Shown: one piece after another, positions 51,001 through 60,000 of the stretch
How the letters are laid out: each line of letters starts with the position of its first letter
Numbering within the stretch: position 1 is the first letter of the stretch
Assembly: GCA_964415585.1 (NCBI GenBank)
Contig: CAYQAY010000001.1
Coordinates: 70,008-134,007, forward strand
Source of the DNA: an uncultured Reyranella sp.
Lineage (GTDB): Bacteria; Pseudomonadota; Alphaproteobacteria; Reyranellales; Reyranellaceae
Length of the DNA: 64,000 bases
Reading direction: 5' to 3'
Program-made: the position numbers

Positions 51001-54000
51001 CTGAGGTCAGTCCAGCGGTGCGAGCCTTCGTAACGATAAAGTCCGAGGCGGTGACGCCAAACCGGCTTATGGGCAGAGCGCTCGACAATGATGGCGATGT
51101 GGCCTGGACGGGCCACCATGGGGTTGCAACGGTCGGCCTCGCTCTGGCGAGCGTCGCCGAGGTGCGTGTGCACGTCGGCGAGTACCTGCAGGCCTCGGCT
51201 CCGGCAGATGCTCCAGAGCTGCTCGAAGGCGTCTGCGTAAAGCACGCAGACACCCGTGCTGTAGGCCTTGGGGTCGAGGTCGTCGTAGAAAACGCAGACC
51301 GTGAAGATGCGCCGCTCACCTTCCCGCTTGCCCAGCAGAAAGGCGCCGCTCTCATGGCGGCCGGCGCCACGGCGATGGAGTTCAGCCATGAGGCCGAGCC
51401 AATCGCGGCGGCAAATCGAGAGCTTGTCAGCCACCGCGCACCCCCGTGTAGTCGGAGCCGTTCAACAGCTCATGCACTGCCTCGAGATAGAGCTGGAGAC
51501 CCTTCTCGGGTCGCCAGATCTGAGACGGATGCTCAACTCGCCAGTTATCGTGGCCGGGGATGCTCTGCCGATCGCAAGGCAGGTAGAGACATCCCCCCTC
51601 GCGCCAATCCGGGCGGAAGACCGCCGGGACCCGCCGGCGCCCCGTGGGCCAGCGGCTCACCGGAAGAGGGGTGTTGGCGTCGGTGTCCCACAGACGCGCC
51701 GTGGGCGGACTCTGGGGATAGCCGGTGCAGTCGAAGCGAAAGCCATAGGTGTCGGGCGCGCCCGATCGCGGGGCGGCGGCAACCTCAACGTCGACGAGCG
51801 GCCAAGCGAAGCGGACGACCCTCAAGCGGCCGAGATGGATGGCCAGTTGGAAGGCCCCTCCGTCCATCTCGTCTTTGAAGGCCTGCTCGTCCGGGCGGCG
51901 GATGAGAGGCGCGCTCATGCCCTCAGCCCTCGACGCGCTTGATCGGCACGAGGGTGAAGCCGATGTCGCACTTGGCCCGAACCAAGGCGCCGATCTGGAC
52001 GTCGGGGTCAGGGCGGTCGGTCGTGCCGGTGATCTGCAGTACGTGCTCGGTAGCGTCGACGTCGGACATCTTCAGCTTGTCGACGTACCAGCGCTTGACC
52101 TGGTTCACTGTGGTCGAGGGGGCAAAGTTGTGGTGCATCTCCAGCTCGTCCGCGTAGTTCAGCGTGACGCGGATCTTCCTGCAGCGGTGGACATGCACCC
52201 GGGCCTTGTCTTGGACGCCCTGCGTGCGCAGCGGCTTGTCGGGCTGCAACGCGCTCTCGTCCTCACCAGCAAAGACGAGCGCCTCACCGGTCTCGGCGCC
52301 CAGGGCGGCCGCCGCAGCGATCACGGCGCCGGGCGTCGCGTTGTCGGGGACTTGGATCAGTTCGATCGGGCGGTGCCCCTCGAACTGTAGAAACAGCTTC
52401 ATCTGCGACATAGGAAGAACACCTCTTGCTCAAAGGGCGGAACTCACCGCCGCAAGAGGTTCAAGACAGTCGCAGACCGAACCGGAAATCACGGGCCGCA
52501 GAACCGATCATGATGTGAGGCCGTCAGCAGGGCAGATGAAGAAGAAGGGACAGGTGGGACAGGTGCGCGCATTGCGCTTCGGATCAAACCGACCGGCGGA
52601 GATGCCAGCGAGCGCGGTTGAGGCTTCGTCCTTGGCCTTGGCCAGCTTGTCCGCGGCCAAAGTCCCGTCGCGTTCGCGTCCGTCCACGAGAGAGATATGA
52701 GTGAAGGTTGCCGCTTTCCCCTCGTCCTGCGCCACCATGGCTTGCAGAAGAGCGTAGCGCGCCTTTGGAGTCTCGCCGGTGCGGGCGAGCCGCCCAGCCT
52801 TGAGCCGTTGGATGACGATGCCGGCGCCGCCGGCCTGGATGTGGTCGGCGCGCGCTGTCACTGTGACGCCTTCGATCACGATCTGCCGCTCCGTCGACAG
52901 CGGGCGGCCGGACATCGCCGCCCCAGCCTTGGCCAGCATGCGCTCCGCGGCCCCTCGGTAGTGCACCGCCGCCGGATGATCGGCAGGTCCCCTGGCGAGC
53001 CAAGTTTCAGAGAGGTGGGCGGCGAACCCTCCTCTCCCCTGCCCGGCCGGACTCCGTAGCCAAGCGACACCCGTGCGGATCACATCGTGAAACCGAAGGT
53101 AAGGAGTATCGGCGAGCCTTCGCGACAGGCCCAGCGCCTCACCATAATAGTAGCGGCGGGGACAAGTCAGATAGTCCTCGATAGCTGTCACGCCGAGCAT
53201 CTCACCGAGCGGCTGCGCTGCCGATTGAGTGCCAAAGGCTCGCGGGGCTGGCCCGGGATCGATCCATTGGGGCTCGGGCCCGCCGCCGGGCGCCAGGATC
53301 GGCACGATCGGCTTCAGTAGGTCGGAAGCGCGTGGCCGGGACGAGCCGCCGTAGCGCTTGGCGCGGGAGACGGTAAGCTTGTCGCGCGCCCGGGAAAGGC
53401 CGACAAACATCAGGCTCTGCTCTTCTGCGTCGGCGCTCATCAGCGGATCCGGGTCCACAAGGCCGGGCGGGAGCGGACAAAGGTCGGCCCGGGCGTTGGG
53501 CGGGAAATAGGATGGACTGACCGACGGAATATAGACTGTGGGGTACTCGAGCCCCTTCGCCGCGTGCACGGTCATGAGCCGGACGGCGTCTACGCCCGCG
53601 GCCCCTGCCGGTAGGCGCCGCAGTTCCTTCTCCTCGTCCAGCACTTCGAGACGCCGGACATGCTCCAAAAACGCACGCTTCGGATCGCGGCCGCTCGGCG
53701 GCCGGTGCCCGAACGCCAACGTCAACAGCTGATAGGCGGCGAGACGCCGCTGCTGGGCGCCCACGTCCGTGCCGGCAAAAGGCGGGGCATAGACCGCCCC
53801 GGCTCGGCCGAAGAGATAGGCCGTCAGGACCGCGTGCGGCGGCGTCATGAAGCTCACGTCGGCAAGGTCATCTGCCAGCCGACCAAGGCCCGTCCTTCCC
53901 TCGTCGGAGAGTTTGATCTCATTTACCCGCCGCAGCGCCGCCAGGAGGGACGTGGCGGTCTCATGCCGGAAGCGGAACACCTCAAGGACATCGCTAACCG

Positions 54001-57000: not shown

Positions 57001-60000
57001 CAGCGATCGACGATCGGCTTGACGCGCTCCAGGAAGGCATGAGTCAGACGGCCCAATACCTCCGGATCATTGTCGTGCGACCGAAGTCGTATGAGATGGG
57101 CCAGGGTTTCGAGACGCCACTCGCGGCTAGGCCACTGATTGTGGGGCAGGCACCGGGCCACGGAAATTTCGGCCTCGACGCTCTGGTGCCGGCAGTAGGG
57201 CTCGCCCGCCTTGGTGCGACAGGTGAGCGCCGCCGCTGTAGGCGGCGGCTCATCCTGTGTCGGACCCGACGGGAGCTTGTTCATGCGGGGCTCAAGACGA
57301 CCTTCGGGCCCACCGGAAATCGGCCGAGAGAATTTTTTTTGCCGCCCTACGGCTAATATCAGTCATCGCCCGCCGTCCAAGAGAGTTCAAGTGCTTAGCT
57401 GGCGGGGGATAGTCATCGTTCCGCACGCAAAGTCCAAAGTGGCACTTCGCCGCTAGGTTGAGTCCTATTTCGCCACCACAGCCAATGACGAGTCAAGAGA
57501 AGGAATTGAATCGCCACCAGAGCGCCCACCACCTCCCTATAGTTCGGGCTCAGCTTGGCCGAGCAGCCGTTGCGCTAAGGGAGGCACTGCCTCGGGTCGC
57601 ATCCGGTCCGAAGCGAAGCCCACCGCCAGCAGCTCACGAGGCAGGTAAGGGTCGTACTTCTCGTGAATGAGGTTTCCGACGGTCAACGCCAGATAGACAG
57701 CATCGGGCGCCGGCGCCTGCTCGAAGCTGCGCAGTGCCGCGACGACCTTATCTGCCGGCGTGCGGTCAGCTTCTAGCACCACCCCGCGCGTTGAGATGAC
57801 GAGCCCGCTGCCTTTGAGGGCCAGCGCCAAGGTACCGAGCGCCACCGAGCCGGCCCACGGAAAGAGAAAGGTATCGCCGTCGATCTCGACGATGTTTGAC
57901 CGGCGCAGGCCAAGTCGATCAAATTCACCTCTGGCCTCGCCAAGGAGGCGTGCGGCAGTTTCGTCGAGAAAAGACGGCACGTCAGTGCTGAGGTAGACCT
58001 CTCGCATCTCCGCCGCGACGACGTCATGCATGTCGCCGCCCTCTCCCCCGAACATGGGCGGCACACCCAACCGAGAGGGGCTTACCACCACGACCTTCTC
58101 GCGATCCCTGACCTCAATCACCTGCCAGCGCCGCCCTGAGAAGATGATGGTCATATCGGGGACTAAGACCGTGAGTATGGGCAGTGTCCCCAGTTCCCTT
58201 TCTTCGCAAACGACACGAAACTCGTCGGGGCTCTGAAACACGGCATAAAAGTCGTAGTGATCGACAATGCGCTCCCCGACTTCGCCCAACAGCAGGGTGC
58301 CGTCGGGGGCTTGTTCGATGAGTCGATTCTGCTCGTCGCCGAGCGCGCGCAAGATGCCCGCAAACACGTCGGGTGAAACTGCCGCAAAGGCCCCACGTTT
58401 GGCCAAAAGCTCATAGGCCCGGGCGGCGGTGATCCCGCCATATTGCGCGATTACGGCCAAAACTTGCTGCGCCAGGGTCGATAAGTGAAGGGCATCAACA
58501 CGTGGCGGCTCGCACCACCGCCTTGCTAGCAGTTGCACCATGGCGATGGTCTGAACAAGCTGACAGCGCAGCCTGTCAGCCGGATGAAGGTCATCTGAAA
58601 GCTGTCGCTCGGGCACATAGAGCCTGATCACCGCCGGCTTATCGCCGCGCCGCCCCGACCGCCCAAGGCGCTGGCGAAGCGATGCGACAGTCCAGGGTGC
58701 CCCGATCTGGGCCACGTTCTCGACGGCGCCGATGTCGATGCCGAGTTCGAGCGTCGAAGTACATACCGCGCTGGTCGGCAGCTTGCCCTCTTTCAGCCGC
58801 TCCTCAACGAACTCCCGATGTGTGCGACTAAGATTGGCATGATGGGCAAAGAATTCCTCCGGCACGCCCAACTTTTCTGACGCTTGGCGCAGCAAGTCGG
58901 CATAGGCTTCGACGTTGGCCCGCGACCCGGCGAACACCAGCCCGTTTTTGCCCCTGAGGGTTTCGAAGACGTGGCCCGCGATCTGCCGCATGTAGAACAG
59001 GTCATCTTCTTCATCAGCGTTGGCGTCATTATCAGATCCCGGAGCCTCATTCTTCTTTTCATAGCCACGCACTTGCAAATGCACGGTCGCTCCACCGGAC
59101 GCGCTCTCCAAGATCACGACATCCTCGCCCCCGCCCGGTCGCAAGAACTCGGCCGCCAGGCCCATGTCGCCCAGTGTGGCCGACAGCCCCACCCGACGCA
59201 CCAGCCGGCCGGTCGCGGCTTCAAGCCGGTGAAGCAACGACTGCAGCTGCTTGCCCCGTTCTTGGCCGATAAAGGCATGCAGTTCGTCGATGACAACGAA
59301 CTCAAGAGTTGAGAAGAGCGCCGCAACCTCGGCGCCACGGCGAACGAACAAGGCCTCCAGAGACTCGGGTGTGATGAGCACTATCCCATCGGGCTGCTTG
59401 CGCGCCCGCGCCTTGCTCGATGCCGAGACGTCGCCATGCCACCGATAGACCGGCAGTTCAGCCAATTCGCAGAGCTCATCGAGACGCCTGAACTGGTCGT
59501 TGATCAGTGCCTTCAACGGGCTGATGTAAATCGCCTTGAATCCATGCCCAGGCGCATCGGCAACACGAGAGATGATGGGCAGAAAAGCCGCCTCGGTCTT
59601 ACCGCCCGCTGTCGCGGCTGCGATAATAATGTCGGCCTCGGTATCCAGAATCGCCGGTATGGCCTGTTCCTGAATGTCGCGCAGCTCGCGCCAGTCCTTT
59701 TGCCAGATCCACCGCCTGACCGGCTCGCTGAGGCGGTCGAAGGCGGTAGACGACTGGTCAGAGCTTGAAGGCGGTGAGCTGGTCGCCACTGGTTGCCCCC
59801 TGCCCAGCCGCGGACGCTACGGTCGCCGCCAGCTCGGCCTCGTCAGGCGTTGCCGTCGTGATCTCAACGCCGTCTAGCAATGTCTGCCACTGCGTGCCGG
59901 GGTTCTGCTCAAGCACCGACAGCAGATTGACGAACGCCGTCACCGTGTTGCGAGGTGTGCGAAAGTACGCATCGCCGATCTTCAGCGAGCAGTGCGTCAT

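Follow-up and report, generated by a model that had tools for sequence, protein, structure and literature searches.

To our knowledge, how Bil and Bub, the bacterial ubiquitin-like (Ubl) conjugation systems, switch on during infection is largely unknown. ImmA/IrrE proteases normally cleave a cognate XRE repressor (ImmR or DdrO) on DNA damage or on activation of the element that carries them. A protease/XRE pair that gates an immune operon follows the logic of CapH+CapP and IrrE+DdrO (10.1101/2022.04.27.489752, 10.64898/2026.05.16.725639). Here we describe a three-gene cassette that stands directly before a Bil operon in a stretch of 64,000 nucleotides (nt), called the window throughout, from an uncultured Reyranella sp. 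(GCA_964415585.1, CAYQAY010000001.1, positions 70,008-134,007, forward strand). The cassette encodes a 263-amino-acid (aa) sigma-like protein, a 214-aa XRE/CapH-like protein and a 1115-aa fusion of an M78 peptidase, a UvrD-type helicase and a nuclease-like domain. We hold with moderate confidence that the trio serves the immune operon downstream as its regulator and sensor, in the manner of CapH+CapP but with a helicase as the sensing part and a dedicated sigma factor.

CapP consists of an M78 peptidase, a central helix-turn-helix (HTH) and a C-terminal GAF domain. Single-stranded DNA (ssDNA) bound in the groove between peptidase and GAF displaces a cysteine-switch loop (C114, D117 and D118 in the E. 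coli MS115-1 protein), and CapH is then cut between F82 and R83. The pair is found at 15% of type II Bil operons and 31% of Bub operons, and canonically lies upstream of the operon in divergent orientation, sharing a promoter region with it. In 24 loci of the cyclic oligonucleotide-based antiphage signalling system (CBASS), CapH+CapP is accompanied by a sigma-70-family gene.

Gene order and distribution of the cassette

The genes, domains and sites on which the argument turns all lie on the minus strand and are given here from the upstream end, with the evidence for each in brackets.

57292..57321, minus: P1, promoter-like motif (exact motif match)
56493..57284, minus: gene for the 263-aa sigma-like protein (open reading frame, ORF; AlphaFold2 and Foldseek)
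55852..56496, minus: gene for the 214-aa XRE/CapH-like protein (ORF; AlphaFold2 and Foldseek)
52508..55855, minus: fusion gene, a single 1115-aa ORF (M78, UvrD and PDDEXK_1 in Pfam)
55310..55855, minus: M78 peptidase domain, fusion residues 1-182 (Pfam PF06114)
53306..55270, minus: superfamily 1A (SF1A) UvrD/PcrA-type helicase core, fusion residues ~196-850 (Pfam, conserved motifs)
52511..53191, minus: AddB/Cas4-like PD-(D/E)XK-fold domain, fusion residues ~889-1115 (Pfam PDDEXK_1, four cysteines)
52461..52490, minus: P2, promoter-like motif (exact motif match)
52421..52460, minus: stem-loop in the predicted bilA 5' leader (inverted repeat and RNA fold)
49546..52411, minus: bilA-bilB-bilC-bilD (PADLOC)

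The genes of the trio overlap by the four nucleotides ATGA, at 56493-56496 between the 263-aa and 214-aa genes and at 55852-55855 between the 214-aa and 1115-aa genes. The translational coupling described in the first-pass annotation of this DNA is therefore present at both junctions, and identical 4-nt overlaps are seen in Tautonia and Sinorhizobium loci. A gap of 96 nt separates the fusion gene from bilA. PADLOC identifies BilA (E = 6e-48), BilB (9e-61), BilC (2e-59) and BilD (1e-154), in the order bilA-B-C-D; the trio itself matches no Bil model there.

To compare gene order, 72 loci were reduced to 54 clusters at 90% fusion identity, and each was counted once and only where enough sequence was present. 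Six-frame ORFs of the loci were searched by jackhmmer with the window proteins and their Pseudomonas versions as queries. The sigma-like gene lies upstream in all 44 non-redundant loci that could be scored. For the XRE-like gene, adjacent to the fusion gene and overlapping it, the figure is 50 of 51; degradation is evident in at least L145 and L146. The first gene downstream of the fusion is bilA in 32 of 37 loci, and all four bil genes follow in 26 of 26 loci of the Bil type. A further four of the 37 have a Bub operon, with the multi-ubiquitin gene first and then, where examined, E1 and DUF6527 genes, and one has a CBASS operon with cyclase, E2 and patatin genes. Trio and immune operon share one strand, a fixed order and a spacing of ~45-210 nt in every one of the 37, and the trio-then-operon order is also found on Acinetobacter and Variovorax plasmids. 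No GajA-like gene adjoins the fusion in any locus.

As the composition of the trio stays constant before three different types of operon, it behaves as a controller and not as an enzyme or subunit of one pathway. The suggestion that a protease/XRE pair gates the immune operon downstream was made from the window alone; it now has behind it a synteny found in every evaluable non-redundant locus and a motif that stands before both the trio and bilA. Three non-Bil examples, at L143 (13473-16215, CBASS), L008 (13326-15680, Bub) and L149 (5561-12768, Bub, on the A. johnsonii plasmid pAcsw19-2), would be convenient model loci. Plasmid pAcsw19-2 is mobilizable and also carries a mer operon.

The same gene order could be read differently, with the fusion as an integral component of Ubl conjugation that recruits Bil or Bub to phage DNA or packaging intermediates, acts as a conjugation target or adaptor, or processes the Ubl precursor. 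All three kinds of downstream operon encode E1/E2/Ubl-type enzymes and, from the fusion's side, the association is near-obligate. However, Bil has its own JAB peptidase for Ubl processing, and descriptions of experimentally working Bil systems give four genes and mention neither a helicase nor an M78 protein. The sigma-like and XRE-like partners and the conserved promoter-like motifs are hallmarks of regulation, and CapH+CapP, CapW and CapK+CapS, which are enriched at Bub and Bil operons, are there purely as regulators. We consider a direct part in conjugation improbable.

The fusion is a genuine and widespread protein. A word-indexed search returned more than 120 clusters of full-length homologues (46-96% identity, 100% coverage, 1110-1130 aa) that share the three Pfam domains and come from Rhizobium, Sinorhizobium, Devosia, Tautonia, Isosphaera and Bryobacterales. 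When fusion residues 1-182 were compared by phmmer with 1.84 billion representative proteins, 255 matches were found at E <= 1e-10. In the best 150 of these the domain occupies the N-terminus without exception, and about half of the proteins have lengths of 1100-1200 aa, with dozens of clusters at 50% identity represented. Some short M78 proteins seem to stand alone, but those inspected proved to be fragments or frameshifted copies whose sequence runs on to Walker A of the helicase; this peptidase subtype thus appears to exist solely as a helicase fusion.

The merging of two genes by a frameshift or an assembly error, raised at the outset as a possible origin of the fusion, is rejected, since the same architecture recurs in the more than 120 full-length clusters and in the dozens of clusters at 50% identity. 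In the metagenomic loci L115 (644-2395), L100, L120, L140, L145 and L146 the fusion gene is split, truncated or frameshifted; these copies may be assembly errors or decaying copies.

The cassette accompanies Bil or Bub in at least five phyla. Alpha-, Beta- and Gammaproteobacteria, Planctomycetota, Acidobacteriota and Chloroflexota are among the lineages, and many of the carriers are plasmids, including those of Acinetobacter, Rhizobium, Agrobacterium and Variovorax. The fusion is found on 51 PLSDB plasmids, 15 of them from Acinetobacter, annotated as 'UvrD-helicase domain-containing protein' or 'ATP-dependent helicase'. In the databases the cassette as a whole is labelled only as a 'UvrD-helicase domain-containing protein' and two hypothetical proteins. 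Metagenomes were scanned with the N-terminal domain of the fusion alone, as full-length alignment picked up generic helicase motifs; in a full-length-alignment scan of the genome collection, six of 80 loci were true fusions among the matches listed. No relative of the fusion was found in IMG/VR viral contigs, and a phage-borne origin was rejected for that reason.

The fusion protein and its partners

All four Pfam domains of the fusion exceed their gathering cut-offs. Peptidase_M78 (PF06114) covers residues 54-174 (E = 6e-16, 58.8 bits against a cut-off of 22), UvrD-helicase residues 197-470 (E = 5e-58), UvrD_C extends to residue 833 (E = 5e-27), and PDDEXK_1 covers residues 889-1109 (E = 3e-13, 50.6 bits against 22). 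In an alignment of 24 homologues (47-78% identity) the peptidase residues H83-E84-x-x-H87, E128 in an EAQAN motif, A131 and N132 are invariant. The N-terminal HExxH peptidase of the M78 family and the UvrD core, both read from the ORF in the first-pass annotation, are thus borne out by profile scores and by conservation.

The closest sequences to the M78 domain in the Protein Data Bank (PDB) are IrrE and CapP. Between the zinc ligands the fusion has a loop in which C97 is invariant and D101 and D103 are at least 90% conserved; it reads C-QP-SDFD in the window and C-SDAD in Thauera CapP. These residues would be the counterparts of C114/D117/D118 in the cysteine switch of CapP, a likeness that is positional only. 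The fusion has no GAF match: a Pro/Glu-rich linker joins the peptidase/HTH part, which ends at about residue 182, to the UvrD core from residue 196 onwards.

The helicase core has the conserved motifs GPGTGKT (Walker A), DEYQD, VGDxxQSIYRFRGA, NYRS, TVHxxKGLEF and SRA, the first two invariant across the 24 sequences. In NCBIfam the fusion matches PcrA at E = 1e-79 and is also similar to UvrD and Rep. Its scores fall far under the equivalog cut-offs (268 bits against 911), which indicates that it is not an orthologue of any of the three. This likeness, with AddAB-like and SbcCD-like genes nearby, could be taken to mean that the fusion is a housekeeping or element-encoded repair helicase, a paralogue of AddA or PcrA with a vestigial peptidase. 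Such a protein would not be expected, however, to have peptidase catalytic residues that are invariant across phyla. The distribution of the fusion gene is patchy and borne on plasmids and islands, and its repair-like neighbours are not conserved. We regard a role in repair as very improbable.

The C-terminal domain was described earlier as a Cas4/AddB-like nuclease. Its fold assignment stands, with PDDEXK_1 and a four-cysteine pattern of the Fe-S type, C...C-x2-C-x5-C, formed by C898, C1099, C1102 and C1108, which are invariant even in distant members. Its activity as a nuclease is doubtful. D1004 of motif II is kept, but 13 residues further on the sequence R1017-L-K1019 replaces (D/E)xK. Residue 1017 is R, V or S, and acidic in none of 20 diverse members, giving an overall pattern of R/V/S-x-K/R that becomes R/V/S-x-R in distant members (Pseudomonas, Sphingomonas, the CBASS-linked locus and Chloroflexi). 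The AddB-like and AddA-like proteins encoded in the window have D-x13-D-L-K and D-x13-D-H-K, at the same spacing, followed by QxxxY, which the fusion lacks.

Neither PDB searches with the nuclease domain, by single sequence or by profile, nor hhalign against the AddB-like domain gave a usable alignment, and the assignment of motif III therefore depends on a manual comparison of position and spacing. On this comparison the domain is probably catalytically inactive. The lack of an acidic residue in motif III makes it more likely to be a DNA-binding or sensing module than a cutter, and it may well be an Fe-S-stapled reader of DNA ends or DNA structure, probably kept for recognition.

These features also bear on the idea that the fusion is an independent anti-phage effector, a helicase-nuclease that attacks or unwinds invading DNA in the manner of Gabija GajB, AddAB or Hachiman. 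The M78 and XRE proteins would then form an autoregulatory or toxin-antitoxin-like module of their own, and the adjacency to Bil would reflect clustering in islands. The best PADLOC matches of the fusion are indeed defence helicases, the RTasHel model of the defence-associated reverse transcriptase (DRT) systems (6e-62) and GajB (1e-59); Shango and Bil flank the locus in a defence island; and COG2856/XRE pairs have been proposed as toxin-antitoxin-like modules. But the PADLOC likeness is confined to the helicase core, residues ~195-614, and an acidic motif III is found in no member. Clustering in islands cannot explain an order, strand and spacing that are fixed in 37 of 37 loci, or a motif shared with the neighbouring operon. 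An effector of this kind seems quite unlikely.

The two smaller proteins have no significant match in Pfam, NCBIfam or PADLOC, and PADLOC v2 includes no model for either. Their description as XRE-like and sigma-like, already given in the first-pass annotation, holds at the level of predicted fold, in AlphaFold2 models built from homologue alignments and compared by Foldseek, and not at the level of profile matches.

The model of the 214-aa protein (mean predicted local distance difference test, pLDDT, 78.6) has a family-specific helical N-terminal region (~9-88), a central XRE HTH (~96-160), a linker and two C-terminal helices (185-207). Foldseek with residues ~96-160 returned exclusively XRE-type HTH structures, among them the 434 repressor, the N-terminal domain of CapH, DdrO, SinR and C.AhdI, all with a probability of at least 0.98. 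Superposed on the CapH N-terminal domain (7t5u), the HTH gives a template modelling (TM) score of 0.78 and a root-mean-square deviation of 2.0 A over 61 columns. The linker is highly conserved yet of low pLDDT, and lies just before the two C-terminal helices. It contains the dipeptide [L/F]171-R172, in which R172 is invariant; the close subfamily has L or F at residue 171, which varies in distant members. By analogy with CapH, this dipeptide is a candidate for the scissile bond.

The model of the 263-aa protein (pLDDT 78.5) has a sigma2-like helical domain (~34-147), a disordered linker and a region-4-like HTH (~182-259). Its 16 best PDB matches by Foldseek are all sigma factors (SigB, sigmaE, AlgU, SigH, sigmaS and WhiG), in alignments of 200-260 columns that cover both domains. 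The TM scores are low because the orientation of the domains differs. In a profile search of PDB sequences the best match is to regions 3-4 of RpoH (E = 0.13). Sigma70_r4 matches stay under the gathering score, at E = 1e-4 in a Pseudomonas homologue and at 0.05 or better in six of 39 members; Pfam finds no Sigma70_r2 match in the 263-aa protein. The predicted fold suggests that it is a divergent protein of the sigma-70-family type. Within the cassette it is central and not incidental.

Promoter-like motifs and the proposed mechanism

The 30-nt pattern GATTTCCGG-N14-GTCTTGA occurs exactly twice in the 64 kb, both times on the minus strand, as P1 and P2; none would be expected (100 shuffles). 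P1 stops 7 nt short of the ATG that starts the sigma-like gene, and P2 lies within the gap between the fusion and bilA. Across the family the motif is asymmetric and bipartite, TTTCCGG-N14-16-GTCTTGA and its variants. In eight aligned upstream regions the sole conserved blocks are an A-tract, TTTCCGG, GTCTTGA and the start codon 7-9 nt further on. The A-tract of the window, AAAAAAAATT, lies directly upstream of the -35-like block of P1 and resembles an UP element. The position of the ATG, 7-9 nt past the -10-like block in all eight loci, suggests a leaderless or near-leaderless sigma mRNA without a Shine-Dalgarno sequence.

Of 36 non-redundant loci, 31 have a P2-like site in the gap that separates the fusion from its first immune gene, and among these are the Bub loci L141, L142 and L008 as well as the CBASS locus L143. 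A P1 site matching the locus's own P2 blocks is present in the 500 nt around the sigma start in 20 of 30 non-redundant loci; the off-target rate of this search, 12 matches in 992 kb, gives about 0.006 expected per such interval. Moreover, the motif varies between loci and the two sites of a locus vary together: GTTCCGG in L001 and L095 (GTTCCGG...CGGTTGA in L001), CTTCCGG in L094, TTTCA[TG]G...CGATTA[TG] in L140 and TTCCGC...CGATC[AG]A in L143. The geometry, with 14-16 nt between the blocks, fits the -35 and -10 elements of an alternative sigma factor, as expected if P1 and P2 are promoters, and we treat them as putative ones.

The predicted leader of bilA contains a hairpin with a 9-nt perfect inverted repeat (-23.3 kcal/mol, z = -3.6), whose 3' arm, GCAAGAGGT, holds the bilA Shine-Dalgarno sequence. 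Translation of bilA may therefore be masked until the structure opens. In 12 loci the paired share of cells is 68.5%, which falls to 58.4% on shuffling and to 38-45% in slid controls. Support for the hairpin comes mainly from close relatives, where some changes are compensatory, and is weak in distant loci; consensus RNA folding of 12 diverse loci supports just a 3-bp inner stem.

The motifs are also relevant to a simpler switch, in which the 214-aa protein is a DNA-binding repressor, the 263-aa protein a LuxR/GerE-like activator or accessory HTH protein, and the motif its site beside a housekeeping promoter. The XRE recognition helix is well conserved, and the sequence-level matches of the 263-aa protein (HTH_36, Sigma70_r4 and a LuxR-type RefSeq name) all fall in its C-terminal HTH. 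The structural alignments to sigma factors, however, extend over both domains, and the motif has -35/-10 geometry with a start codon or leader directly after it. No sigma-70-type promoter is detectable nearby, a simple consensus scan of 46000-58000 having found none. We think a switch without a sigma factor unlikely.

Several observations weigh against the view that the trio is a CapH+CapP-like regulator with its own sigma factor. The sigma assignment is marginal, with a best Foldseek E of 2.5e-3 and Pfam matches below threshold, and RefSeq names one homologue of the 263-aa protein 'LuxR C-terminal-related'. The motif pair could consist of activator sites instead of true -35 and -10 elements. 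The 214-aa protein has no significant HTH_3 profile match, its sequence profiles being weak (E = 0.1-1.3), and in the alignment of eight upstream regions there is no conserved palindromic operator near P1. In the peptidase, C97 lies 10 residues past the second histidine, where CapP has a distance of 13, and the loop exceeds that of CapP by 14 residues. CapH+CapP is divergent from its operon, whereas the cassette is co-directional and translationally coupled. Finally, Bil, Bub and E2-type CBASS all hold E1/E2/Ubl-type machinery, and a more intimate functional link would also fit.

As the cis elements are asymmetric and of the -35/-10 type, the XRE-like protein may act on the sigma factor, in an anti-sigma-like manner, instead of or as well as on DNA. 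Together with the extra N-terminal domain, the lack of a conserved palindrome near P1 inclines us towards a protein-protein role. At 57365-57410, in the stretch from the end of sngC to P1, there is a 17-nt inverted repeat, imperfect (76% complementary) and with a 12-nt spacer. Related loci do not conserve it, which makes a role as XRE operator unlikely; it might be a local terminator or insulator.

If the trio is a regulator, it could work as follows. In uninfected cells the 214-aa protein would hold the sigma-like factor inactive, by sequestering it or by occupying its promoters, and the cysteine-switch loop would keep the peptidase shut. On infection or DNA damage, the helicase and the Fe-S domain would load on ssDNA or DNA ends, and DNA binding, possibly with ATP-driven translocation, would open the peptidase. 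The 214-aa protein would then be cut in its conserved linker, at or near [L/F]171-R172. The freed sigma-like factor would drive P1, giving positive feedback, and P2, switching on the immune operon.

The most specific form of this picture is a self-contained, DNA-licensed sigma switch. A helicase with a dead Fe-S nuclease would engage phage DNA ends or replication intermediates and open a CapP-type peptidase by ATP-driven motion; an XRE-fold anti-sigma factor would be destroyed, and a private sigma factor, encoded by a leaderless message, released to transcribe both its own operon and the Ubl-conjugation operon. With every step included this is a tentative proposal, possible rather than probable.

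Were it true, a nucleic-acid motor would be coupled directly to regulated proteolysis and sigma release, and this would account for the switching on of many Bil and Bub systems. If the regulatory model as a whole holds, the GAF-type ssDNA sensor of CapP would be exchangeable for an ATP-driven DNA motor, altering the DNA signal that is read, and XRE-fold proteins would be tied to sigma-factor control. The C-terminal domain would be a natural example of an Fe-S nuclease fold retained for sensing and not for cutting. The cassette would also be a compact, portable expression module, inducible by DNA damage or phage, with P1 and P2 as defined promoters.

Surroundings of the cassette and comparison with known systems

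A complete Shango system, SngABC (57537-63889, minus strand; PADLOC E-values down to 1e-273), lies immediately upstream of the cassette, and Shango genes also flank it in L113/L114, L117 and the close relative L148. A near-identical locus in GCA_040959605.1 has the order integrase, AbiE, Shango, trio, Bil, AddB-like, AddA-like, which places the trio in a defence island of a mobile element. Past the defence genes of the window, at 29544-39528 (minus strand), are genes of integrative or conjugative elements, for a ParB-N protein (756 aa), a DUF7146-Toprim protein, a RadC JAB protein, a Strawberry-notch-like AAA_34/Helicase_C_4 protein (1466 aa) and a YAcAr SLOG-domain protein. At the opposite end of the defence genes, L148 carries an integrase and AbiEi/AbiEii.

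Downstream of bilD is a four-gene cluster (39809-49706, minus strand) that starts ~30 nt after it and encodes AddB-like (958 aa, PDDEXK_1), AddA-like (1179 aa, UvrD and PDDEXK_1, with a canonical DxK), SbcD-like (396 aa) and SbcC-like (891 aa) proteins. No PADLOC system matches this cluster. The first-pass annotation counted Bil, AddAB and SbcCD together as targets of the switch. Bil holds as a predicted target across the family, following the fusion in 32 of 37 loci; the AddAB/SbcCD-like genes were rejected as conserved targets, as they follow Bil in this window and a close relative only. No terminator was detected between bilD and the AddB-like gene and, given the short gap, the latter may be co-transcribed with bil in this window. 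Co-expression of the cluster could come about by read-through alone, in an arrangement specific to this locus. SbcD-like and SbcC-like genes recur beside the trio in the unrelated loci L007 (60% identity), L009, L124 and L143. The four genes may form a module of these islands, for defence or repair, that has yet to be characterised.

The searchable literature describes no M78-helicase fusion, no such three-gene cassette and no Bil- or Bub-associated helicase, although the supplementary tables of the Bil and Bub surveys could list one. Parts of the cassette can nevertheless be compared with several known systems. GajB and the DRT-associated UvrD-like helicase are strongly similar to the fusion in the SF1 core only. 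They are without M78 or Fe-S domains, and the fusion loci are without GajA or a reverse transcriptase. Like AddB, Cas4 and AdnAB, the fusion has a UvrD-family motor followed by a PD-(D/E)XK fold bracketed by C...C-x2-C-x5-C. It differs from them in its degenerate motif III and lack of QxxxY, and in being a single polypeptide with an N-terminal peptidase and no conserved partner subunit.

The modules in which an extracytoplasmic function (ECF) sigma factor is freed by proteolysis of its anti-sigma factor, such as sigmaE-RseA, likewise combine a sigma gene, a co-transcribed antagonist, here a candidate one, and a dedicated protease. As in those modules, a cognate promoter-like site precedes both the cassette's own operon, consistent with autoregulation, and the target operon. 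The anti-sigma factor RseA is a membrane protein with a recognised domain, whereas the candidate antagonist here is a cytoplasmic XRE-fold protein. The protease of the cassette is an M78 peptidase carried on a helicase, and its sigma-like protein is too divergent to reach the Pfam thresholds for Sigma70_r2 or Sigma70_r4.

The closest likeness is to CapH+CapP. As in that pair, and in IrrE+DdrO and the ImmA+ImmR of ICEBs1 and prophages, an M78 zinc peptidase is paired with an adjacent XRE-type HTH protein. The peptidase also has, between the zinc ligands, a loop with a cysteine and acidic residues that resembles the CapP cysteine switch in position, and the C-terminal region of the 214-aa protein has a hydrophobic-Arg dipeptide where CapH (F82-R83) and DdrO are cut. 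Both systems are promoter-proximal to Bil, Bub and CBASS operons, and some CapH+CapP loci also have a sigma-70-family gene, which in the cassette is obligatory (44 of 44). Where CapP has its GAF domain, the fusion has ~930 residues of SF1A helicase and Fe-S nuclease-fold domain. CapH is half as large as the 214-aa protein, which adds a ~90-residue N-terminal domain, and the conserved cis elements of the cassette resemble alternative-sigma promoters and not palindromic operators. The cassette thus appears to be a protease/repressor regulator of the CapH+CapP type in which the sensor domain differs and a sigma layer has been added.

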